Translations under genes and position numbers: made by a program | The notes under the pieces: model-generated | What the model was told of the DNA's origin: nothing | The model's input: the letters and a program-made list of their open reading frames with translations, nothing else | The model's database searches: none | Assembly (NCBI GenBank): GCA_964473825.1 | Contig: CAYYQL010000043.1 | Coordinates: forward strand, 2,840 to 20,413 | Length of the DNA stretch: 17,574 nt | Direction of reading: 5' to 3' | From: an uncultured archaeon | GTDB taxonomy: Archaea > Asgardarchaeota > Thorarchaeia > Thorarchaeales > Thorarchaeaceae | Shown here: in pieces, positions 3 to 11,359 of the stretch | How positions within the stretch are numbered: position 1 is the first letter of the stretch | Layout: each line of letters starts with the position of its first letter

Positions 3-3000
3 GATCGAGATGCGGGAGATGCGCAGATAGCCGACTCCCTTGATAATGTGACTGTGGGTTCTCAGAGTTTCGACCAGCTAGAGTTTGAGTACGATACAAG
101 TGCGTGGACTGTCGGCGAATACCAGCGTACTCTGACAGTTTATCCCGACAATGACAAGTACTACTCTACGAGCATGCTTGTCAACTTCACAATCTTAGCA
201 CATGAGACCTCTGTCGTTGTGAATGCGGAAACCAACATTCCTTGGGGAGAGAACTCATCCTTCTCAGTTAGTTGGTATGACCGTGACGATGGCAATTCAT
301 TGATCTCAGGAAACCTGGAGAACATCACTGTTGACACACAGGCCTTCGACACTCGTACTTTCGATTTGGTGACAGACGACTGGAGCACTGGCACGTACAG
401 GTTGGACCTTGTGTTCTACTCTTCAAGTGTGAACTACATGCATGCAACGACGCAGGTCAATATCACAGTAAGGGCTCATCATACTGCAGTGTCTGTAAAA
501 GGCAGTCTGACTGTTCCTTATGGCAATGGCACCCCGATCACTGTTGTGTTCTGGGATACGGATTGGAATGTAGAGGTGCCAATATACAACGTGTCAACAG
601 ACGGAATCCTGTTCGACGCGGGTGCATATGGAACTGAAGCCTTCAATAACTATTCACCAACCCTCTCAACCGATACGTGGAGTGTAGGCGAGCACTCGGT
701 CACGCTCACAGTGACATCTCTGGGAGATGGCCTCTACTATGATAATGCAGTACATGGTTTCAGCGTCACAATACGGAGACTCGGAATCCGTGTGGTTCAC
801 GAACCCACTGACATGATCATCCCCTTCGGCGACGACTTCAACATCATCTTGAGGGTTAATGTTTCAGAGATTGGTAATCAATATGATGGAGACTCTGTGC
901 TGGGACTCGGCGTTTCCGATCTACTGGTCCAAAACTCCACGTACACATTCCCCTTTACTCTCGACGATCTTGGGGACGGACGATACAATCTGACTATAAG
1001 CAACTCTGAACTCACAGACGAGTCCTATAGAATCACTATCACAATCCGACGTTCTGGCCTTATCTACGGAAGCGACTACATCACAATCGAGTTCAGCTAC
1101 AGGGATGCCAGAAGTTATCTCTCATCTCCGAACTATCCGAGGGTGATTACACCATATGCGACTGATGTCACGATTAGTCTAAATTATACTGATGTTGACC
1201 GGGACATCGGCATAACCACAGGGACGGTTACTGCTGAGGGTATTGAAATCTACGATGAGGGCCATATTGGGAGCGGCGTGTATGAAGTCACGCTGAATGT
1301 GACGAATCTAGACCGCGGTGATTATGAATTCAATATAACAATCAGTGCACAGCAGTATGAGGATAAGACACTGTCCTTCATCCTGACAATACGAATTGTC
1401 TACACTTATGCGATTCCCTCGGTGGGGGCACTGGACATTCCCGTTGGTAATGATCCTGTATTCTACGTGGACTACTGGGACACCGACCACGACGTTCCCG
1501 TGGAAGATGCCATCTTGTATCACAACTGGAGTGGCACGGTCGACATCGTCTATTTACCAGGTGAAGAGCGCTATCAGCTAACTTTCATCACTGAAGACAC
1601 TGATCCGTTGGAGCAGAACAGGATAGTTGAGTTCAATTTCTCCAAGGGTCCGAACTATCAATTTGGAATCTTCACAATTACGGTGACAATCCGTACCCAC
1701 CAAACGGACTTTCGACTTGTCAGTGCGGTAGAGCCAACGAGCTATAATGGGATCATAAACATCTCCCTATTCTATGGTGATATAGACAACAATATCGGAA
1801 TCGACTCTTCGCTCGTGGCTCATCGAGCAGTCAACGAAAGCGGTTCCGGAGTTGAAGTATCGTCCAGTCTCGTCAACGAGGGCTTCGGGTATTACACCGT
1901 GCAGATACCAGCTACTCAATTTGGGGTACTTGGAACCCAGAACTTTTTGATATACTTCAACTGGACTGGAGATGTCTACAAGTACGAGAATAAGACCATC
2001 ACCGTGGGGGCAAACATCATCGGTGAGGACTCGGAGTACACTCTGCTGTTCTCATCTGAACCCACTCCCTACTTGAACAACATGAGTTACACATTCCTTT
2101 ACTCTGAGCTCTATAGCGGACAGGGAATCAGCAATGCGTCTGGAAATGTGTACATCTATGTTTCCTTCGAAGACGAATCAATTGACTTGAACAAGATTGA
2201 CATCTGGGAGGTCATGGATGCAAACAAGACACCGGGTGAATATGCCATCCAGTTCAACACGACGACCTTCGGTCGTACGGGACGCTTCTATATGACTGTG
2301 TACATCAACTGGTCTGCAGGAGAAGAGCCCTTCTACACCAACAGGACTGATACAATCTCGGTCAGAATCCTTCCACGCGATACCCTGGTATCCGTGGTTC
2401 CACCGACGCCGACGTCTCATGGTGAGAACGCAACTTTCTCGTTCACATTCGACGATGTGACTGGTGGGGAATCAGTACCGATTTCTGATGATCCCAGTCT
2501 CTCGATATCACTCAGTCTTGCGGATTACTCTATCACGTATGACTCAGAGACCAAGGAGTTCACCATATCGTTCGATACGAGCCAGTCGCCAGTCGGCGAT
2601 GAGCCACTAGGACAGAAATCGTTCATTTTGAATGTTACTTGGAACGGGGAACCCTACTATGCAAATCGGACTGGACGAACAATCTTTGTCAGTGTCACGG
2701 CTCGCCAGACCGTGGTAGATTACCAGTCCCCTGCACCGACACAGTATCTGGATAATGTGACCTTCTCAGTTGATTGGACAGATGTGACTGGTGTGACGGC
2801 AGTTGGTATTGAAACTGGGATCATTACACTATACGATGGTCTGACCGAGATTCCCGCCAGCTTCTACCATGTGGACAACCTAGGGGAGGGTGCTTACAGC
2901 GTAGAACTCACCACGACCTACTACCCTGAACCTGGAACGTATGATGTCACTGTGGGACTCCACACTGATGAGTTCTATATACTTGATGTGAACACCACAC

Positions 3001-6000
3001 GGCAGTTCTCTGTCAGATATCGAGTAACACTGTTGTCAGCTGAACCTGTTGGTAAGAGCCCGTACAACTCATCAATTGAAGTTATTCTCAACTTCCAAGA
3101 CCTTCTCACTCTGGATAACATCGCTAACAACTCAGACGTCACTTTTGCAATAATGGATGGTTCAAGCTGGACCTACACAATAGAATGGAAACCTGCCTTC
3201 GGGTACTACCTTCTTGTGCTGGATACCTACAATCATCCTGAGCTTGAAGTGGGTGTGCCCTTCGTTCTCCAGTTCAATATGAGTTATGACTATCAGGATC
3301 CCTACTACCGTTGGGATGACACTTACGTTTCGTTCGAGATGAGAACTAGGAAATCGTCCCTCGAACTCGAAGAGGCACCCCTGCCAACTGCTTATCTGGA
3401 CTATGTCGACTTCACGGTCTTCTATAGGGATGTTGATGGCACAGGAGGAATATCGAGTGCCACAGTGTCAATCTACAAGGGCATGACTGAGCTTCAGGCG
3501 GGCATCGACTACTCAGCTATCGAAGTATCAGCTGGCCTTTGGAGTGTTTCTGTTAACACCACCGCATTGGACGGTCTTGGGATAACCGAAGTACAAGTGA
3601 GAGCAAACTGGTCAAATACCTCACCCCATCATGACAACGCAACACTCACTGTGAGCCTTCGTACGATTAGACGTCAGACCAATGTGGAAGTGATCAGTCC
3701 ACCCGGACAGACGCCATATCTAGAGAACGTCACTTTCACGTTCAGCTTCACGGACATCGGTACTGGAAATCCCATCACCGGAATCACAGTAGACCAAATC
3801 ATCGTGTATAACGATTTGACCGCTCTTGTACCAGGTGAATACGTACTCAGCATTGTGGGGAGTTCCTATGAGATTCAGGTGAGCTCTACAGTGATTGATG
3901 CACAGCTTGTGACAAATAGAAACCTGACGATTGTTGTTGACTGGGACGACGGAATGGTCCCCTATTATGAGGATGATCAGACTTCAATCAAGGTAACAAC
4001 CGTGAAACGGACAGTTCTGGTGTCGGTCGGTCAGATATTGGATACGCCACTGGGCGACTTGATGAATATATCATTCACTTACAGCGATCAGGAGACTGGC
4101 AATGGGATTGAGGGAGCGATAGTGCTCTTCAGTTGTGCGGAGGTTTCTGACCTGGTAGAGAACACTGACTACTGGGTCACCAATGGCACTGGAGCAGAGG
4201 CAGGCCAATACCTCATCTCGCTAGATACTGATGCTCTGGGCGGTATCAGTGCTTTCACTTTCTATTTGGACATCCACTGGGATCCAGCACAGCAGCCTTA
4301 TTACCGAAATGCGACGACATTCGAGGTTCGCGGTTCCACACGGCTTATACAGACTTCTCTGAGTAATGATGCGCCTTCGCCCGGAACAGTCCCTCTCAAT
4401 GATGAGGTGTCAGTCATCGTCACCTTCAATGATGTTGACCATGGCGAACTCGTAGATGGCGCAGGAGCGGCCATCTCAGTGATATACAAGAGCAGTGGCT
4501 TGGAGCCAGCTGACTGGAGCTATGATCCCTTGGGGAGCGGCCAGTACAACATCACTGTTGATACTGATGATGCAGGAGGTGCGGGAACCAAGGCAATCGT
4601 GATACGGATAGATTACTACCCATACTTGCCTCTTGAGGTGCAGGTGACCTTCCAGATACGCTTGCGAGTTGGAGTCGTATCCATCGAGTATTTGCCAGAT
4701 GCAATCTACGCTGGAGATTCAACGTACGTCATCCTCAACCTCACTGATGCCGATGCAAATAGTGCGCTCGTAAAGGATGCTATTCTTAGCCTGACTTGGC
4801 CGGACTCAACGAAGAGCTGGGATGATCTTGGGAATGGACGCTACAACATCTCGCTGGGAACATCAGAACTCAACTATGGCCTCAGGCGTCTGACCGTGGA
4901 AACATCGTTACAGAACTACACGGTCCAGACCGTATCATTTGATCTGGACCTGCTTGCTGTCACAACCGATTTTCTATCATCTTCTGATTTCTACGAGTTG
5001 TACTTCATGGATTTGCAGACCTTCTCAGTCTACCTGAACGATACTGTTCATGACACTCCGATATCAGGCGCTGATGTAGACTGGAGAGCAACCTCCTCGG
5101 TCCTTGGTTCCATGACCGAGACTACACCTGGAAACTATTCCTACACGCTTGATACGTCATTGCTCAGCGCTACGACAGTTGTCGTTAGAATCACGGCACA
5201 GAAACCAAACTACGTGACAGTATCTGTGCAGATCACTCTGAGCATCTTGCCACTTCCTGTGGAGATTGTACCGGTAGATGGCCAGTTCGTCTTCTCATTG
5301 ACCAGAGGTGAAAGTGTACATGTCGATGTTTGGCTCAATGAAACCGTAAATGGTGCCCTTGTCGACGGTGCTGAAGTGACTGTTTCCTGGGACTTCAACA
5401 CAACTCAGCTGACTGGTGTCGGCCCCGGTAGATACGAAGTATTTCTGAATACCGACGAAACTGAGGTCAAGTCCTATACGATCTCAATAACAGGTCTTAA
5501 GCAGAACTATCTGGTGGCTCCAACTACACTCACTGTATCCGTCAGACAGACGATGACGGTTGTGCAATTCTCATCAAGCAGCCAGGCAAACTACAGCTCT
5601 ACTATCGCCTCGTTCTTCTGGAGCGAGGTACCCTATATCGAGGTCTATGTGTTTGCTCCATATCTCTCAGAAGCAGACGCAAACAGATCTGATGCCATTG
5701 TATCGTGGAGCCTCATAGCCGAAGGAGCATCTGATGGTGGCTTCATGCAGAACGGCAGTGCCACTCTAGCAGGGATGTACTATCTCTACCTCAATACATC
5801 AGAATTCGATGCTAACACATACACACTAAGGGTATCTGCTGACGTGATGAGTCCCGCTTACACCGACAACAGCACTGCCACCACGATGACGATTCGAAAC
5901 ATACGAACAGCGGTCGAAGTGCCCGATATTGAGCCGGTCTATTGGGGGAACAGCTCGTGGTACTACTTCAGCTATTTCGATACAGATCGAGATCTCCCTG

Positions 6001-6880
6001 TTGAGGGCGGCTCTGTCACGTATACATGGGCAGATCTGGAGTACGATGCCGTCTATGTGGGAGAAGGAGTATACGGAATCTTCATCGATACTCACGAAGT
6101 GCTTCCCAGTCCTACTCGATACCCAATAGTGGTCGCCTTCGGGAAACAGAACTTCGACAGTCAGCAGAGAACAACATACCTCCGCGTGAATGAGATTCCA
6201 ACCGAACTTGTTCCCTATGCATCTGATGTGAACAGGGTAGATGATAGTTCCTCCCGCCTCCAAGTTCCCTATGGCGACGAACTTACTGTATACATCTACT
6301 ACAACGTAACCGCTTATCCGTATGAAACACCATATATAGGTGGGATTGCTGATGCAACGAGATGGGCTCAATTCACTGAACCTTTTGACGACCTGAATCT
6401 GACAGATCTGGGCGGAGGAAACTACAGCTTCACCTTCACCACAACTGACTATGATATACGCGATGACGCCTACAGGATTACCGTTGATATGCGTCAGGAT
6501 AATAGAACCAGAGCGAGCATTTCTATCTCGATTTTTGTGATAAGCGTTCCAACCACCGCACAAGCCTCCCTCCCGACCACGACCGTTCAGATGTACTATG
6601 GAGATACAATGGACTTCACGGTGACTTATTCTGACACATGGCCAGGGCACGACTTTGAGAGCATCGATGAAGCAATCATCTCAATTGGCTCTGACAATCC
6701 GGATCTTGTGAATATCACCTACTTGGGTCCTGTTACAGGCCAACCTGGAACCTACAGATTCAGGATAACAATAAGCCGAGGCATTCTACCCAATGTCAAC
6801 CAGCAGGTGGCCAGTGTAAACATCACTCTCAGCAGAGAAAACTACAATCCTCACTCCATATCTTTGACTGTCAGAATGGG
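3..6880 (+). repeat. Protein-level tandem repeat array (~22 units of ~105 aa)
   Basis: Inter-domain linkers recur: ILAHETSV, VRAHHTAV, IRRLGIRV, YRDARSYL, IRIVYTYA, IRTHQTDF, IIGEDSEY, ILPRDTLV, VTARQTVV, VRYRVTLL, MRTRKSSL, TIRRQTNV, TVKRTVLV, TRLIQTSL, IRLRVGVV, LLAVTTDF, ILPLPVEI, VRQTMTVV, IRNIRTAV, VNEIPTEL, VISVPTTA. The units are highly diverged, with no obvious DNA-level identity. Confidence 0.8.
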
Positions 6881-7730
6881 CCCAAGTCCCGAGGACCAGA
6901 CTCTGTCAAGCGCCATCAACCTGGGTATGCCATTGGCAATTCTTGTTCTTCTCATAGGAGTTCTATGGGTCCGAGTCTTCAGCGTACCCAAGAAGCTCCG
7001 CAAGCTGAACGGGCAAATCAAGACATTACGTAAGGGGAACATTCCCAAGCCGTTGGATGACGCGAAGGACCGGAAAGAGATTGTTGCACAGCTCTTCAAT
7101 GACACATATGCCCAGTACAATGAGAAGCTTGAGGAGGGCCGTCGCATCACTCGCAAACCCGATGAGATGCCTCCCGAGGCAGTTGAGGTAGACATACCTG
7201 AGATGGGCGAGCTGCTGGTGCAGCTATCAATCCTTACCCGATTGAGTCCTGAAGAGCTAGACGAGTTCAAGGGAGACATTGCAAAGATGCGTCTGAGTGA
7301 ACAGGCCAACTTCGTGAAAGAAGTCATCCACCAGGAGGCCATCAGGGCAGCTAGGCGCGAGAACAAGACTGTCGAGGAGATCATTGACGACGTTCAGCAG
7401 CAAGCGAAGCGGAGGCTGGGTGAGTTTGAGGGCGAGGTTCCTGAAACCGTGAGTCGCCGCATACCTGACGAAGATCTTGTCATTCTTGAGGAGACTCGAG
7501 AGCCCCCCAAGCGTGAGACAGAGGAACTACTCAGGAAGGAGCGACTCGAAGAGGTAAAGGACTCTGAACTACCCGCCGACAGACTCAGTCCCTTTGAGAT
7601 TGAGGATCTCAAGAAGAAACTTGAATCACTCGGCGTGCCCCCGCATGAGATTGACACAATCCTAGAGCAGGCGAAGCATCTCTCACGAGAAGATGTTGAA
7701 GAACTGGTTCGTAGTCTTGGTGGAGAGTAG
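3..7730 (+). CDS. Giant single-pass cell-surface glycoprotein with tandem Ig-like beta-sandwich repeats and cytoplasmic C-terminal domain (5'-truncated by window)
   Basis: The frame is open from base 3 (DRDAGDAQIADSLDNVTV...), so GTG48 is not the true start. It contains about 22 degenerate ~90-120 aa Thr/Val/Tyr/Asp-rich repeats with recurring YxDxD and GxGxYxhxhxT motifs, many N-x-S/T sequons, a hydrophobic helix LGMPLAILVLLIGVLWV at 6921-6971 followed by a basic stop-transfer segment, and a charged helical tail. Confidence 0.88.
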   Translation, partial: DRDAGDAQIADSLDNVTVGSQSFDQLEFEYDTSAWTVGEYQRTLTVYPDNDKYYSTSMLVNFTILAHETSVVVNAETNIPWGENSSFSVSWYDRDDGNSLISGNLENITVDTQAFDTRTFDLVTDDWSTGTYRLDLVFYSSSVNYMHATTQVNITVRAHHTAVSVKGSLTVPYGNGTPITVVFWDTDWNVEVPIYNVSTDGILFDAGAYGTEAFNNYSPTLSTDTWSVGEHSVTLTVTSLGDGLYYDNAVHGFSVTIRRLGIRVVHEPTDMIIPFGDDFNIILRVNVSEIGNQYDGDSVLGLGVSDLLVQNSTYTFPFTLDDLGDGRYNLTISNSELTDESYRITITIRRSGLIYGSDYITIEFSYRDARSYLSSPNYPRVITPYATDVTISLNYTDVDRDIGITTGTVTAEGIEIYDEGHIGSGVYEVTLNVTNLDRGDYEFNITISAQQYEDKTLSFILTIRIVYTYAIPSVGALDIPVGNDPVFYVDYWDTDHDVPVEDAILYHNWSGTVDIVYLPGEERYQLTFITEDTDPLEQNRIVEFNFSKGPNYQFGIFTITVTIRTHQTDFRLVSAVEPTSYNGIINISLFYGDIDNNIGIDSSLVAHRAVNESGSGVEVSSSLVNEGFGYYTVQIPATQFGVLGTQNFLIYFNWTGDVYKYENKTITVGANIIGEDSEYTLLFSSEPTPYLNNMSYTFLYSELYSGQGISNASGNVYIYVSFEDESIDLNKIDIWEVMDANKTPGEYAIQFNTTTFGRTGRFYMTVYINWSAGEEPFYTNRTDTISVRILPRDTLVSVVPPTPTSHGENATFSFTFDDVTGGESVPISDDPSLSISLSLADYSITYDSETKEFTISFDTSQSPVGDEPLGQKSFILNVTWNGEPYYANRTGRTIFVSVTARQTVVDYQSPAPTQYLDNVTFSVDWTDVTGVTAVGIETGIITLYDGLTEIPASFYHVDNLGEGAYSVELTTTYYPEPGTYDVTVGLHTDEFYILDVNTTRQFSVRYRVTLLSAEPVGKSPYNSSIEVILNFQDLLTLDNIANNSDVTFAIMDGSSWTYTIEWKPAFGYYLLVLDTYNHPELEVGVPFVLQFNMSYDYQDPYYRWDDTYVSFEMRTRKSSLELEEAPLPTAYLDYVDFTVFYRDVDGTGGISSATVSIYKGMTELQAGIDYSAIEVSAGLWSVSVNTTALDGLGITEVQVRANWSNTSPHHDNATLTVSLRTIRRQTNVEVISPPGQTPYLENVTFTFSFTDIGTGNPITGITVDQIIVYNDLTALVPGEYVLSIVGSSYEIQVSSTVIDAQLVTNRNLTIVVDWDDGMVPYYEDDQTSIKVTTVKRTVLVSVGQILDTPLGDLMNISFTYSDQETGNGIEGAIVLFSCAEVSDLVENTDYWVTNGTGAEAGQYLISLDTDALGGISAFTFYLDIHWDPAQQPYYRNATTFEVRGSTRLIQTSLSNDAPSPGTVPLNDEVSVIVTFNDVDHGELVDGAGAAISVIYKSSGLEPADWSYDPLGSGQYNITVDTDDAGGAGTKAIVIRIDYYPYLPLEVQVTFQIRLRVGVVSIEYLPDAIYAGDSTYVILNLTDADANSALVKDAILSLTWPDSTKSWDDLGNGRYNISLGTSELNYGLRRLTVETSLQNYTVQTVSFDLDLLAVTTDFLSSSDFYELYFMDLQTFSVYLNDTVHDTPISGADVDWRATSSVLGSMTETTPGNYSYTLDTSLLSATTVVVRITAQKPNYVTVSVQITLSILPLPVEIVPVDGQFVFSLTRGESVHVDVWLNETVNGALVDGAEVTVSWDFNTTQLTGVGPGRYEVFLNTDETEVKSYTISITGLKQNYLVAPTTLTVSVRQTMTVVQFSSSSQANYSSTIASFFWSEVPYIEVYVFAPYLSEADANRSDAIVSWSLIAEGASDGGFMQNGSATLAGMYYLYLNTSEFDANTYTLRVSADVMSPAYTDNSTATTMTIRNIRTAVEVPDIEPVYWGNSSWYYFSYFDTDRDLPVEGGSVTYTWADLEYDAVYVGEGVYGIFIDTHEVLPSPTRYPIVVAFGKQNFDSQQRTTYLRVNEIPTELVPYASDVNRVDDSSSRLQVPYGDELTVYIYYNVTAYPYETPYIGGIADATRWAQFTEPFDDLNLTDLGGGNYSFTFTTTDYDIRDDAYRITVDMRQDNRTRASISISIFVISVPTTAQASLPTTTVQMYYGDTMDFTVTYSDTWPGHDFESIDEAIISIGSDNPDLVNITYLGPVTGQPGTYRFRITISRGILPNVNQQVASVNITLSRENYNPHSISLTVRMGPSPEDQTLSSAINLGMPLAILVLLIGVLWVRVFSVPKKLRKLNGQIKTLRKGNIPKPLDDAKDRKEIVAQLFNDTYAQYNEKLEEGRRITRKPDEMPPEAVEVDIPEMGELLVQLSILTRLSPEELDEFKGDIAKMRLSEQANFVKEVIHQEAIRAARRENKTVEEIIDDVQQQAKRRLGEFEGEVPETVSRRIPDEDLVILEETREPPKRETEELLRKERLEEVKDSELPADRLSPFEIEDLKKKLESLGVPPHEIDTILEQAKHLSREDVEELVRSLGGE

Positions 7731-7755
7731 CCGGAGCGTTATCAGCTCGGTTACT
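7726..7755. terminator. Hairpin between convergent genes, overlapping both stop codons
   Basis: AGTAGCC-G-GAGC-gttatca-GCTC-GGTTACT forms an 11-bp stem with one G-U pair, a 1-nt bulge and a 7-nt loop. Confidence 0.45.
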
Positions 7756-8515
7756 ACTCCTCCGCTCTGATGAAATGAGAGAGCGGCAGTGTTGTACCAA
7801 AATCTCGCCGCTTTGCTCTGGAGGTTTGCCTGATTGGATATTGGGGGTGCTTGGTGAGTATGTACTTGAAGTAGGACTTGCTCTCTGTCACATTGACATG
7901 AATCTGTGCACAGCTGGAGAGAGTCTTACCTCCTGCTGGAAACTTGGAGTTTCTCGATGAGGCTGGGGCTGTCACTATGGTGAATAGATTGTGACTCAGA
8001 GTGAAGGTCATCAGCTTGCTTGCCATGTGAGAGATCTGCTGCATTGCATCTCCTGATAGTCCTTCAGAGATGTAGAGATCTGGAAGTCCGGAAACAATGA
8101 GTAATCTTGCTGGAATGCGGTCTAAGAAATTCTCTAGTTGGTTCATTACGAGGTCATAGGTCTGTGACGAGTTGAATGCTCTAGAGATATAGATATGATC
8201 CATGACCTCTTCGGGTTTCAGCTCGACATCGAATGCAAAGTCTGCGATTTTCTCCATTTTGATTATGTTTGCACTGTCGATCATGACCGTTGGGCTGTCC
8301 ATTCCTCCTGACTCCTTGGATAGCTGTACATTGACTGCGGCGCGGATAATATCACTATGAAGCGAACGGTCGCCATAGAAGAGATGCATCAATCCCTTCT
8401 CCAATCCGCCGCCTAGTAGGGTGTCTATCGCTTTTGTACCCGTACTGACCTGTTCTCTCTTCATTTGGTCGGCTGTGGCGAATCCCAGTCTTAGGTCTGA
8501 TTTCAGCTTCTTCAT
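7754..8515 (-). CDS. RadA/Rad51-family paralog, predicted ATPase-inactive, lacking N-terminal HhH domain
   Basis: RadA hallmarks are GFATA, STGTKAIDTLLGGGLE, VQLSKESGG, hIDS, IYISRAFNS and PAGGKTL. Walker A reads YGDRSLHSD (no GKT) and Walker B reads LLIVSG (no Asp). Confidence 0.88.
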   Translation of the reverse strand: MKKLKSDLRLGFATADQMKREQVSTGTKAIDTLLGGGLEKGLMHLFYGDRSLHSDIIRAAVNVQLSKESGGMDSPTVMIDSANIIKMEKIADFAFDVELKPEEVMDHIYISRAFNSSQTYDLVMNQLENFLDRIPARLLIVSGLPDLYISEGLSGDAMQQISHMASKLMTFTLSHNLFTIVTAPASSRNSKFPAGGKTLSSCAQIHVNVTESKSYFKYILTKHPQYPIRQTSRAKRRDFGTTLPLSHFIRAEE

Positions 8516-8625
8516 TCCACCATGATGTTGGCTTTATGAAGTAATAATCCCCACCGAAAAGTGTGCATCCGACACTTAGTTTAATAGTCCCCCTTTCATA
8601 CCTTTATTGGCCGGGAGAAATTCAA

Positions 8626-8817
8626 GTGACGCAGAAAATCCGAGTCTGTCCTCGTTGTGGAAGCGCCAAGATATCCGAAGCAAAGAGCTCTGTTGGTGGG
8701 TGGCTGGTACCTTCCTCGTATTGTTGTCAGGAATGCGACTATGTAGGTCAGGTGTTCGTTGAAATCGAGATTTCAGATCTGAAGAAGCTTCAACAAGCCA
8801 TCAAGGGCGAGGCATAG
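8626..8817 (+). CDS. Small Zn-ribbon protein (~63 aa)
   Basis: CPRCGS...CQECDY pair of Cys knuckles. The likely start is GTG 8626 (in frame with the 8563 ORF), preceded by GGGAG at 8613-8617 and TTTAATA at ~8580-8586. Confidence 0.75.
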   Translation: MTQKIRVCPRCGSAKISEAKSSVGGWLVPSSYCCQECDYVGQVFVEIEISDLKKLQQAIKGEA

Positions 8818-8896: not shown

Positions 8897-9322
8897 ATGG
8901 TATCATATGAAGGGTTCGAATTTCCTGAGGACTTATACTATACTACTGACCAAGAATGGGTCAAGAAAGAAGACGGCAAGGTTCGGGTTGGCTTTACGAC
9001 TTTCGGCATGGATCTCGCTGGAAAGATCAAGTTCGTTCGACTCAGACCAGCTGGCCGTGAGATCAAGGCGGGTAAAAGCATCGGCACGCTTGAGTCTGGA
9101 AAATGGACCGGTCCGGTGAAAGCACCAGTCAGCGGTACATTGGTCGAGGTAAATGAAGAACTCAAGACCAATCCTAGTGTGTTGAATGAGGATCCATATG
9201 GCAAGGGCTGGATTGCAGTCATCGAGGCAACCAATCTTGAGGACGACCTTAAGGAGTTGCAGGGTGCAGACGGCCTTGAGGAATGGGTCAAGAAGGAATA
9301 CGCTGAGAAGACGGCCGAATAG
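8897..9322 (+). CDS. gcvH: Glycine cleavage H-family lipoyl carrier protein (GcvH/LbpA-like)
   Basis: Motifs PEDLYYTTDQEWV, VRVGFT, LESGKWTGPVKAPVSG (lipoyl-Lys) and VNEEL...P..LNEDPYGKGWI. Confidence 0.93.
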   Translation: MVSYEGFEFPEDLYYTTDQEWVKKEDGKVRVGFTTFGMDLAGKIKFVRLRPAGREIKAGKSIGTLESGKWTGPVKAPVSGTLVEVNEELKTNPSVLNEDPYGKGWIAVIEATNLEDDLKELQGADGLEEWVKKEYAEKTAE

Positions 9323-9325
9323 TTC

Positions 9326-9367
9326 CATGGGCGAGTGCGGTGTCGGAATGGTCCGGCACCACCCATG
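9326..9367. terminator. GC-rich hairpin between convergent gcvH-like and cdc6-like genes
   Basis: Inner stem GGTGTCGGA-atgg-TCCGGCACC (9339-9360, one G-U) and outer stem CATGGG/CCCATG, followed by a T-rich stretch on the + strand. Confidence 0.5.
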
Positions 9368-9375
9368 CCATTTTC

Positions 9376-10509
9376 TCATTTTCTACGCAACAACTCTCGC
9401 CGCATGGAGAGGGCTGCATCATAGAGGACTTCTGGTGGAGTGAGTACGTAGAGCAGGTTTCTAGAATAGCCAGACTCGAACACGATACTCTGAAAGATGA
9501 GCGTCTGCAGACTCTTCTCGATGTCATCGCGCGCATGCTTGATTCCCAGTTCTTCACACTTGATGAGTATCAGCTCGTTCAAGGTCTTTCGGTCGATATA
9601 GGTTTCAGTCTTGTATCTCATCAGATGCTCGGTCATTGCCTCAAGTACGAGTAGCGTCATGAAGTCATTCATCGCTACGGTTTCAACAATCTCCATGTAG
9701 TCTTGGTCGAGCCCAAATGTAGTTATGTTAGAGGTTGCTGATCTTACCATATCAGAATCAATCTCTTGTCCTCGTGAGGCAAGCGGCCAGAGGGCCTTCA
9801 ATGCCTCGATTGAGGTCTTGGGTTTTGAAGCATCAAACTCGCAGACCAGATCAGTGATGTAGCGGATCACCTCATCTGTCAGACCGAGCGGGAATGTGTC
9901 TTCTACTCGCATCCGAACAATCTCGTAGAGCTGACTCTGTGTGTACGTATCTAGAGGAATCTCAAAGTCATATGCCATGTCGGTGGCCGGTTTCTTTGTT
10001 AGGAGTCGATAGTCATGACTGTTGAGTACACCAATGGTGGACGCACGAATTTCCTTTGACAACCTGGCAAGTTTGAGATAGACATCTTCGTTTGTTTCGT
10101 CGATGTTATCAATCACAAAGACTGTCTTCTTGGCATCTGCAGCAGTGCGCTTGAATTGCATCCACAACACATCAAGATCAAAAGCCACAGTGATTGGTCT
10201 GTTGGTCTCTCTGTGAATCTTGTCATTCAGTTCTGCAACTATCTCAAGGAGGTCTTTCCGCTTTGCATCCACATATACAGTATGCGCATCGAATCTATCT
10301 GGAATGAGTGTTGTGAGAAAATAGCGAGAGAATACTGTCATGCCAACACCGGATATTCCGTGTACAAGACAATTGACTCCATAGTCTTCTTCGTAAGAGT
10401 CGGAGTATACGCCCGCTATGCTGTCCAGCTCCCTGTTTCTATGGAGTAGCTTTTCGGGCACATAGTATGGATCAAAAAGCCCCTTTGGACTACGATGCGG
10501 TCTTACCAT
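9376..10509 (-). CDS. Orc1/Cdc6-family AAA+ / winged-helix protein, divergent, predicted ATPase-inactive
   Basis: Family motifs FDPYYVPEKLLHRNREL, NCLVHGISGVGMT (Walker A position), FVIDNID (Walker B position) and YTQSQLYEIVRMRVEDTF, plus a C-terminal helical domain of wHTH size; 377 aa. Confidence 0.85.
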   Translation of the reverse strand: MVRPHRSPKGLFDPYYVPEKLLHRNRELDSIAGVYSDSYEEDYGVNCLVHGISGVGMTVFSRYFLTTLIPDRFDAHTVYVDAKRKDLLEIVAELNDKIHRETNRPITVAFDLDVLWMQFKRTAADAKKTVFVIDNIDETNEDVYLKLARLSKEIRASTIGVLNSHDYRLLTKKPATDMAYDFEIPLDTYTQSQLYEIVRMRVEDTFPLGLTDEVIRYITDLVCEFDASKPKTSIEALKALWPLASRGQEIDSDMVRSATSNITTFGLDQDYMEIVETVAMNDFMTLLVLEAMTEHLMRYKTETYIDRKTLNELILIKCEELGIKHARDDIEKSLQTLIFQSIVFESGYSRNLLYVLTPPEVLYDAALSMRRELLRRK

Positions 10510-10581: not shown

Positions 10582-11049
10582 CTACGTCATCGACTCAAGT
10601 ATACTGTCAGAGTCTGGGTCGAAGATAAAAGGGTTGAACATTGCTCCGACTATCTCTCTGAGTTCTTGAAGCCTCTCGAGTTTCGCATCGTTGCTGAAGA
10701 TCCATTTGTGCTCTGGTTTTGGAGTTATGCGCAGTTCTTCGCAGAGGGTGACCATTTCCTTTACGACCTTGAATTTCTCGGCACCTGTTTTGTTGTCAGG
10801 CCGCATCTCGCGTGAGTGCATTATGATTCCATAGGCGGGTGCATTATTTCCGAGATACCACTTGCTTGGGGCATGCCCATACTTTGCAAGAGGGACAAAC
10901 ACATTCTCGAGCAACAGGTTGTCGATGCGTTCGATGCACTGCTGCATATTGGTGAGGATTTGGTCGTAGAACCCATACCCCTCGAAGAGAGCCATCTGGA
11001 CTCCCTCCCTTGGATTTCGCTTCGGCAGTTTCAAGCGGATGTCCTTCAT
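10582..11049 (-). CDS. Hypothetical protein, possibly a relic of an Fe-S / FAD-linked oxidoreductase
   Basis: 155-aa ORF overlapping the upstream stop (ATGA). VQMALFEGY resembles the VALFxGC start of CCG domains. The C-terminus (PEHKW...LQELREIVGAMFNP) weakly recalls the end of FAD-linked oxidase C domains. The frame stays open ~26 codons upstream of the ATG. Confidence 0.45.
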   Translation of the reverse strand: MKDIRLKLPKRNPREGVQMALFEGYGFYDQILTNMQQCIERIDNLLLENVFVPLAKYGHAPSKWYLGNNAPAYGIIMHSREMRPDNKTGAEKFKVVKEMVTLCEELRITPKPEHKWIFSNDAKLERLQELREIVGAMFNPFIFDPDSDSILESMT

Positions 11050-11359
11050 CGCTTGCGTCTCGCGTCTGATGAGTGATCTCTTCTCCGTGATATCAGATAA
11101 GCGCGTGTACGCTGTCTGTGCCAGATCTCAAGAAGATCAACATCGGAAGAACACATCTCCGCACATCTTCCGCACACGGTGCATTGGAAGAGGAGCCGTC
11201 TGAACTCTCTTCCAAGCTCCTTGTCGTCCTCAATCTGCTCCATGACTTGCAAGAGATACACCTTACTCTTGGTGATTACTGCTCCTCGCCGGTGACTCGG
11301 AACAACGGGCAGAAGCTGAGGCACGACCCACAGCGAACGCAACGTTCGTAATCTTCCAT
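11046..11359 (-). pseudogene. Disrupted 2x[4Fe-4S] dicluster protein (GlcF/HdrC/GlpC-type N-terminal domain)
   Basis: From ATG 11359 (or TTG 11404) the frame reads MEDYERCVRCGSCLSFCPLFRVTGEEQ-TAA(11278-11276)-SPR. After a frameshift near 11266 it continues KVYLLQ...CTVCGRCAEMCSSDVDL. The two CxxCxxCxxxC motifs lie in different frames. Confidence 0.82.

Follow-up and report, generated by a model that had tools for sequence, protein, structure and literature searches.

A catalytically dead RadA of Thorarchaeia, very probably a dispersed iRadA of the PolB2 mutasome, carries the polymerisation motif of RadA

Introduction

What can a RadA paralog still do when every catalytic motif has been lost and the polymerisation motif of the recombinase has been kept? 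This question is raised by a gene in a stretch of 17,574 nucleotides (hereafter the window) from an uncultured archaeon of the Thorarchaeaceae in the phylum Asgardarchaeota (GenBank assembly GCA_964473825.1, contig CAYYQL010000043.1, positions 2,840 to 20,413 of the forward strand). The gene occupies positions 7754..8515 of the window on the minus strand as an uninterrupted open reading frame (ORF) of 253 amino acids (aa), encoding an ATPase-dead RadA/Rad51 core without the helix-hairpin-helix (HhH) domain. A preliminary description, made from the letters of the DNA, had proposed an unclassified mediator resembling eukaryotic Rad51 paralogs or Shu proteins. Here we report that the protein very probably belongs instead to iRadA, the inactivated RadA of the archaeal PolB2 mutasome, and that it bears a motif through which it may contact RadA itself.

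To our knowledge, the PolB2 mutasome is known only through Sulfolobus genetics and in silico models. An operon combining PolB2, an inactivated RadA and arCOG07300 was described by Makarova et al. in 2014 (PMC4104785), and a complex of PolB2, iRadA and a PPB2 trimer was modelled by Timinskas, Timinskas and Venclovas in 2025 as the "PolB2 mutasome" (PMC11791011). The proofreading-less PolB2, the small trimeric PPB2 and iRadA are together predicted to form an archaeal damage-tolerance complex (PMC4104785, PMC11791011). The published iRadA lacks the N-terminal domain, and in the model a PolB2 loop that mimics the oligomerisation motif binds the iRadA pocket (PMC11791011). Operons of Loki- and Heimdallarchaeota with the motif C sequence HGIVDS are among the data of that study, and Thorarchaeota are not listed in the accessible portion of its supplement text.

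Results

The canonical RadA encoded in the same genome (L001:1162-2220, plus strand) is 28% identical to the protein, and the pairwise alignment of the two showed all the motif losses that the preliminary description had listed. All coordinates that follow within the gene are on the minus strand. Walker A, YGSFRSGKT in host RadA, has become YGDRSLHSD without GKT (residues 47-55; 8351..8377), and the catalytic Glu motif VDTE reads IDSA. The Walker B sequence LLVLDS is replaced by LLIVSG, which has no Asp (residues 138-143; 8087..8104). L1 is reduced from HFRAEYTGRG to LYISE followed by a four-residue gap, with loss of the arginines, and in a shortened L2 region (TAPA... PAGG; residues 182-196; 7928..7972) TAPA stands for TNQV, so that the NQ of RadA is missing. 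K222-H223-P224 (7844..7852) occupies the place of the DSP "ATP cap" in the RadA sequence VDSPNLP. The HhH N-terminal domain is absent, and the protein starts 10 residues ahead of GFATAD (residues 11-16; 8468..8485), a RadA-type FxxA donor motif that aligns with GFETAD of host RadA and shares its G, F, T, A and D. The insert of the QLxxxxGG type is also kept, VQLSKESGG aligning with VQMPPGEGG. Conservation and likeness to RadA are highest in residues 77-130 (8126..8287), which include IDSAN, in place of IDTE, together with a hydrophobic acceptor pocket. A canonical RadA recombinase was ruled out, given that GKT, the Walker B Asp, the catalytic Glu, L1/L2 and HhH have all been lost.

Database searches placed the protein close to RadA. 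Its sole Pfam match was Rad51 (59 bits, residues 22-170). In the NCBIfam scan RadA came top with 86 bits, below its cut-off of 259, and RadB models gave 34.5-36.9 bits against cut-offs of 172-278. The best matches in a sequence search of PDB were Pyrococcus RadA cores (E 3e-20). An AlphaFold2 (AF2) monomer model built from a 114-row alignment reached a predicted local distance difference test score (pLDDT) of 88.7 and a predicted template modelling score (pTM) of 0.83, and the top Foldseek matches of this model were RAD51/RadA filament protomers with template modelling (TM) scores of about 0.8. When the family profile was compared with PDB, RadA scored 139 bits, DMC1 109, RAD51 96, RadB 49, RAD51D 47, XRCC3 45 and RAD51C 36, and no Shu proteins were among the matches. 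The profile thus ranks RadA far above RadB and the RAD51 paralogs, and the protein is therefore a RadA derivative and not of the RadB or RADbeta type. A RadB or aRadC-type paralog was ruled out by these scores and the missing Walker A, and ancestry from RADbeta, the eukaryotic Rad51-paralog lineage, by the much closer profile match to RadA (139 vs 36-47 bits).

We then asked how the losses are distributed among orthologs. A search of 5.8 billion proteins returned at least 229 homologs with 55-95% identity, nearly all of 250-260 aa, and those with a name were nearly all from Thorarchaeota. Motif counts were taken over 121 of these homologs. GKT was found in none of them; the Walker A replacement is conserved as YG[DE]RxLHxD, with D55 present in all 121. 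The sequences IIDSAN, SRAFNSSQTYD and LxV[TAS]GLP are conserved as well, and in the Walker B remnant position 142 is T, A or S and G143 is invariant. K222 and H223 occur in 121/121 and P224 in 120/121. GFxTAD is retained in 118 orthologs (per site, G in 115 and F, T, A and D in 118 each), which agrees with the expectation of the preliminary description that FxxA would be conserved. The C-terminal tail G[TG]TLPLS[YH]F[LI] is nearly invariant, with T242, L243, P244, L245, S246 and F248 each kept by 119 or more of the 121. The gene was detected in 70 of 81 sampled Thorarchaeia genomes and in 22 of the 24 high-quality ones. Many genomes of one Thorarchaeia genus (g9; G011, G012, G014, G015 and others) hold two copies with 45-51% identity to each other's clade, and both subclades keep the FxTA motif and the tail.

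The ratio of nonsynonymous to synonymous substitution rates (dN/dS) against two close orthologs was 0.18 (dS 0.14), 0.067 and 0.056 (the latter two at dS of about 1), and the gene is under strong purifying selection. Because the replacement motifs are conserved, dN/dS is low and the family occurs almost throughout the class, the loss of ATPase function is ancestral and selected, as the preliminary description had held when it set an ATPase-dead RadA paralog against lineage-specific decay. A decaying, functionless RadA duplicate would account for the loss of every catalytic motif, but more than 200 homologs have an intact frame, the motifs in place of the catalytic ones are invariant, dN/dS is 0.06-0.18, the fold is confidently predicted and the gene is near-universal in Thorarchaeia. 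We give this explanation virtually no weight, pseudogene status or decay being ruled out by ortholog conservation and the selection data.

The family to which the protein belongs was indicated by its relatives beyond Thorarchaeota. In an exhaustive phmmer search these were many P-loop-less proteins of ~250 aa in two groups, group A from Lokiarchaeota/Promethearchaeota and Ranarchaeia and group B from Bathyarchaeia and Hecatella. The Ranarchaeia loci of P0296 and P0134 show the order dead RadA, DUF8156 (PPB2, 87-89 aa) and family-B polymerase, and at the locus of P0304 the dead-RadA gene lies ahead of a DUF8156 (PPB2) gene. These operon iRadAs gave E values of 8e-32 to 4e-26, and the best RadA with GKT reached 2.6e-16. 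A group A profile built without Thorarchaeia rows gave 168.7 bits for this protein vs 102.5 for host RadA, and a group B profile 142.5 vs 75. In a tree of 75 rows the Thorarchaeia clade (support 100) fell within group A (93), beside the Ranarchaeia operon proteins (89), and groups A and B together with Thorarchaeia were joined with support 87. A reduced tree separated the GKT-bearing RadAs from all dead forms with a Shimodaira-Hasegawa-like approximate likelihood-ratio test (SH-aLRT) value of 99. In the Thorarchaeia proteins and other iRadAs alike, the N-terminal domain has been lost, L1 and L2 are shortened and the motif replacements are the same, and both have an H-P signature and a C-terminal Lxx[FWY][LMF] tail. 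The preliminary description had named the inactivated RadA genes beside polB2 only as something to check; the profiles and the relatives in iRadA-PPB2-PolB2 operons support that link, and the notion of an unclassified Rad51-paralog or Shu-like mediator gives way to the iRadA family.

The P-loop-less relatives of group B (L021, L022; FIDGGN, VVISD) are stand-alone genes: PolB2 or PPB2 neighbours were checked at these two loci and none was found. One of the two genes adjoins a type III CRISPR (Cas10/RAMP) cluster.

The partners of iRadA are present in the host genome (G000; 3.27 Mb, 96% complete) at a different locus. A local hidden Markov model (HMM) made from three PPB2 sequences gave a single match (72.8 bits), which lies on contig C28 immediately upstream of the gene for a PolB of 756 aa; the N-terminus of the matched protein, MGRTARTFR, matches PPB2's conserved N-terminal arm. 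The polymerase lacks canonical motifs A and C, with HGIVDS in place of YGDTDS, and its full-length alignment with the operon-encoded PolB2 of L016 shows 36% identity (521 bits). PolB2 orthologs were found in 75 of the 81 Thorarchaeia genomes. PPB2 is always ahead of PolB2 at the Thorarchaeia loci, and no iRadA stood beside any of nine PPB2-PolB2 loci examined; likewise, no PolB or PPB2 was found within 8 kb of iRadA in the five Thorarchaeia loci examined. The iRadA gene is itself monocistronic, and a Zn-ribbon gene and gcvH run divergently from it. We hold with high confidence that the protein belongs to the known iRadA family, here in a dispersed arrangement of genes.

We next considered the N-terminal arm. 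In the AF2 monomer residues 1-14, including most of GFATAD, are disordered, and the motif has a pLDDT below 50. For the complex prediction, residues 96-352 of host RadA, which include its own GFETAD, were combined with full-length iRadA in three runs. The interaction prediction score from aligned errors (ipSAE) was 0.71, 0.70 and 0.69 (median 0.70), and the best of three controls gave 0.00. Of 80 solved complexes 58 reached the ipSAE mark, as did 2 of 110 mismatched pairs, counts that are only rough here because our own alignments were used. The runs agreed in at least 84% of contacts, with a partner pLDDT of at least 85. Residues 8-18 of iRadA were placed in the RadA acceptor pocket, contacting RadA 176-228, and F12 was packed against I176, V208, W209, A210, L221, Q224, A225 and M228. 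Further residues of iRadA (162-174, 200-204 and 222-225) faced the RadA P-loop (147, 152), Walker B/L1 (244-251) and Q286, an arrangement from which K222/H223 could act in trans on the RadA ATP site. In all three runs iRadA was the donor on RadA, despite the presence of RadA's own motif in the chain. The predicted interface is filament-like with iRadA as donor, in line with the contact between FxxA and host RadA that had been proposed in the preliminary description. We found no mention in the published study of an iRadA that bears an oligomerisation motif itself, and nowhere does the paper use the term "FxxA" (PMC11791011). The strict RadA polymerisation motif is a distinctive, unreported feature of the Thorarchaeia iRadA.

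The protein also retains the receiving side of such a contact. The residues of iRadA that correspond to the RadA pocket around F12 (I77, I85, M87, I90, V104, M105, I108, Y109, I110, L122, L127 and F130) are conserved and hydrophobic, so that iRadA combines a donor motif with an acceptor pocket. Giving the pocket to PolB2 leaves the donor arm free for RadA. It could be argued that this is an ordinary mutasome iRadA in which GFxTAD serves self-association or contact with PolB2-PPB2 and not with RadA. Its RadA-like pocket could take its own motif, some genomes have two iRadA copies with the motif kept in both, and the score of the RadA complex could reflect memory of solved filaments. Against this, the motif has G, F, T, A and D in common with the host RadA GFETAD, every run put iRadA as donor on RadA although RadA's own motif was available, and in the published model it is the PolB2 loop that occupies the pocket of iRadA (PMC11791011). 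We consider such a use of the motif quite improbable.

A second short motif is found at the other end of the protein. The C-terminal tail GTTLPLSHFI (residues 240-249; 7769..7798) is a Q-less candidate resembling a PCNA-interacting peptide (PIP) box, and TLPLSHFI fits the core of that box (h-x-x-aromatic-hydrophobic, short helix). In the AF2 monomer the last core strand runs to residue 234, and a short helix at 245-249 (LSHFI) is predicted with lower confidence on a flexible tail. The disordered arm and the helical tail, as modelled, are as expected for two short linear motifs on flexible arms. Among the host proteins whose C-termini were compared, Fen1 ends in QSTLTDFL, an XPG-like nuclease in QSTLESFV and the replicative PolB in FTTLDQFF, which is also Q-less. 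The iRadA tail resembles these PIP boxes; no PIP-like end was found on host PolB2. Clamp motifs have been reported in many iRadAs, seldom alongside one in PolB2, and a conserved clamp-type tail with none on PolB2 fits this published "either iRadA or PolB2" pattern (PMC11791011). To judge from its sequence, the tail is consistent with iRadA as the carrier of the clamp contact through a candidate PCNA-binding motif. Both the conserved tail and the conserved acceptor pocket had been missed in the preliminary description.

The same evidence bears on whether iRadA works in the PolB2 system at all. It might instead have left that system and act through GFxTAD on recombination itself, regulating RadA filaments on its own as a cap, mediator or inhibitor in the manner of eukaryotic Rad51 paralogs or BRC repeats. 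This would suit a gene that is unlinked from PPB2-PolB2 in each Thorarchaeia genome examined, whose GFxTAD is invariant in the Thorarchaeia clade only, which is predicted to form a filament-like interface with RadA (ipSAE 0.70 vs 0.00 for controls) and whose Bathyarchaeia relatives likewise stand alone; in some genomes with iRadA, such as G017 (93% completeness), no PolB2 was found. However, PolB2 and PPB2 are kept in 75/81 genomes, the host included, the pocket given to PolB2 in the published model is the best-conserved part of iRadA, and the clamp-type tail is conserved on iRadA while PolB2 is without one, matching the published pattern (PMC11791011). We regard a function outside the PolB2 system as unlikely.

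In the Thorarchaeia the iRadA gene lies in a conserved order of genes: malic enzyme, M28 peptidase, CCG/Fer4, FAD_binding_4, a divergent Orc1/Cdc6-like AAA+ gene, gcvH and a small Zn-ribbon gene (both on the opposite strand), iRadA and a giant protein (opposite strand). The Orc1/Cdc6-like gene (9376..10509, minus strand) scored 70.8 bits with the NCBIfam orc1/cdc6 model, whose cut-off is 181, and holds a fixed position two genes upstream of iRadA across Thorarchaeia. Its product has the Walker A sequence GISGVGMT and the Walker B sequence VIDNIDE; since the Walker A Lys is replaced by Met, it too is possibly impaired as an ATPase. Genes of the orc1/cdc6 type are enriched near polB2 operons (PMC4104785, PMC11791011), and the crenarchaeal damage response is driven by an Orc1 paralog (PMC11791011). 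Given that enrichment, the neighbour may be a remnant of a polB2-orc1/cdc6 association.

The Zn-ribbon protein, which has four Cys (CPRCG...CQEC), is encoded at 8563-8817 on the plus strand, divergent from iRadA and 47 bp from its start. This gene (67-84 aa) keeps its place in all Thorarchaeia loci examined, and the short intergenic region contains two conserved TATA-like boxes. An ORF of 148 aa at 8933-9379 on the minus strand, considered as a local operon partner, was rejected as spurious because GcvH is encoded on the plus strand. Convergent with iRadA is the 3' part of a giant ORF (3-7730, plus strand; more than 2575 aa) without a Pfam match, the orthologs of which have 2471-5030 aa and faint DUF2341/Laminin_G_3 matches. 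At 10582-11342 (minus strand) a deletion of ~1.7 kb was seen relative to close relatives. There a 98-aa ORF corresponds to residues 31-87 of the 368-aa CCG/Fer4 protein of L013 (82% identity) and a 155-aa ORF to residues 291-445 of its 445-aa FAD_binding_4 protein (68% identity), so that in the host genome the two genes of a glycolate-oxidase-like unit have been truncated or fused.

The host genome contains six Rad51-family genes: the canonical RadA (477 bits), two tandem HhH- and GKT-bearing paralogs, a RadB-like gene, iRadA and a second P-loop-less gene. The tandem paralogs (L002:1363-3530, contig C15) overlap, encode 352 and 370 aa and have the divergent linker motifs GFQSG and FPSE; they are a RadA duplication pair in this Thorarchaeon. 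The second P-loop-less RadA-like protein (242 aa, YSGERAPLT) keeps the DS of Walker B and gave 45 bits with the iRadA profile, and thus is no iRadA. Its gene sits in a four-gene same-strand cluster (L006:397-3459, contig C15) with an XPG/Fen1-like nuclease, which is the one with the canonical PIP end QSTLESFV, and two proteins without a Pfam match.

Discussion

We propose that the iRadA of Thorarchaeia is probably an adaptor that links PolB2 to the ends of RadA filaments and possibly to PCNA. iRadA would act as a passive three-way adaptor. Its hydrophobic acceptor pocket would take the RadA-mimicking PolB2 loop, as in the published model (PMC11791011), and its tail TLPLSHF[IL] would bind PCNA. 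The GFxTAD arm would enter the free acceptor pocket of the terminal RadA protomer and cover the ATP site of that protomer, a contact with RadA that would be particular to the Thorarchaeia lineage. It is plausible, at somewhat better than even chance, that the strict RadA polymerisation motif docks iRadA, and PolB2 with it, on RadA filament ends.

The polarity of such a cap can be considered by analogy. In the human RAD51-XRCC3-RAD51C assembly, the XRCC3 pocket accepts the FxxA of RAD51, and the 5' end is the one capped by the paralogs (PMC13186703). Because an acceptor paralog caps the 5' end, a donor-type iRadA cap would be expected at the 3' end of the filament. There it could put PolB2 at an invading or stalled 3' terminus, in parallel with Pol V activation at the RecA filament tip and with ImuA in bacterial mutasomes. 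The complete arrangement, in which iRadA caps the RadA 3' end with K222-H223 by the terminal ATP while holding PolB2-PPB2 in its pocket and PCNA on its tail, is a doubtful conjecture when taken as a whole. As for the cap or mediator suggested in the preliminary description, its mechanism finds partial agreement in the predicted docking on RadA; the system to which it was assigned does not stand, since the protein falls to the PolB2 mutasome and forms no new class of Rad51 paralogs.

Several observations weigh against the adaptor proposal or against the family assignment on which it builds. The operon link that defines the system is absent in Thorarchaeia, as iRadA never adjoins PPB2-PolB2; where a genome is a single contig, 0.2-1.2 Mb separates the two loci, and their upstream regions gave no common motif, only lineage-conserved TATA-like boxes. 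The arm homologous to GFxTAD is degenerate in other Asgard iRadAs (MITA, LITA, FINA, FVEA, FIQA; [FLM]xxA) or absent. The score of the predicted complex reports likeness and may be memory, because RadA-RadA, RAD51 filaments and RAD51-BRC have been solved. TLPLSHFI is without the canonical Gln of the PIP box. In approximately unbiased (AU) tests on the reduced LG+G4 tree, a tree holding Thorarchaeia with RadA was not rejected (log-likelihood 15.75 lower, p 0.245), nor was Thorarchaeia as sister of groups A and B (p 0.515). The AU tests being indecisive, common descent with iRadA rests on the profile scores, the shared derived motifs and the SH-aLRT support.

If only the ordinary part of this account is true, a Rad51 paralog of Thorarchaeota is now filed under a published family. 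The three mutasome genes can be dispersed, and operon-based surveys therefore undercount iRadA. Since the Thorarchaeia iRadA is conserved throughout a class of Asgard archaea and bears the polymerisation motif of the recombinase itself, recruitment of the mutasome to RadA filaments becomes testable. If the filament-end cap is true, a specialised polymerase would take over from a recombinase filament by direct physical hand-off, and this in the prokaryotes most closely related to eukaryotes; such a hand-off would mirror the activation of Pol V by the RecA tip and prefigure end-capping by Rad51 paralogs.

Compared with the published iRadAs, the Thorarchaeia protein is alike in its RadA core without the N-terminal domain, the loss of ATPase residues, the conserved pocket and a candidate C-terminal clamp-type motif; an orc1/cdc6-like gene is nearby, PPB2 and PolB2 are in the genome and the closest relatives are operon-encoded. 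It differs in that the gene is unlinked from PPB2-PolB2 throughout, in the strict GFxTAD donor motif and in the tail without Gln. With canonical RadA it shares the fold, the GFxTAD linker motif, the pocket region and the QLxxxxGG insert, whereas HhH, Walker A/B, the catalytic Glu and the L1/L2 DNA-binding loops are missing, a C-terminal tail is added and KHP replaces the DSP ATP cap. RadB, represented in the host by L005:1456-2169 (plus strand), is likewise a short RadA paralog without HhH, but it keeps GSGKT and has no FxxA.

Beyond archaea, the RAD51 paralog caps (XRCC3-RAD51C-RAD51D-XRCC2; PDB 9q29, 9svx, 9zzr) resemble the proposed role in having a non-recombinase Rad51 fold that binds a filament end through FxxA and pocket. 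XRCC3, however, accepts the RAD51 FxxA and caps the 5' end, whereas the Thorarchaeia iRadA is a predicted donor, and the human paralogs keep their Walker motifs and N-terminal domains and are not orthologous to it. Pol V (UmuD'2C-RecA) and ImuA-ImuB-DnaE2 also place a recombinase-fold subunit on an error-prone polymerase, with an oligomerisation-motif/pocket contact and a short clamp motif. The polymerases of these bacterial mutasomes are unrelated to PolB2, and the subunit of Pol V is an active RecA from the filament tip. The comparison with ImuA already made in the preliminary description, a dead recombinase homolog within a mutasome, appears apt as a likeness of function alone.

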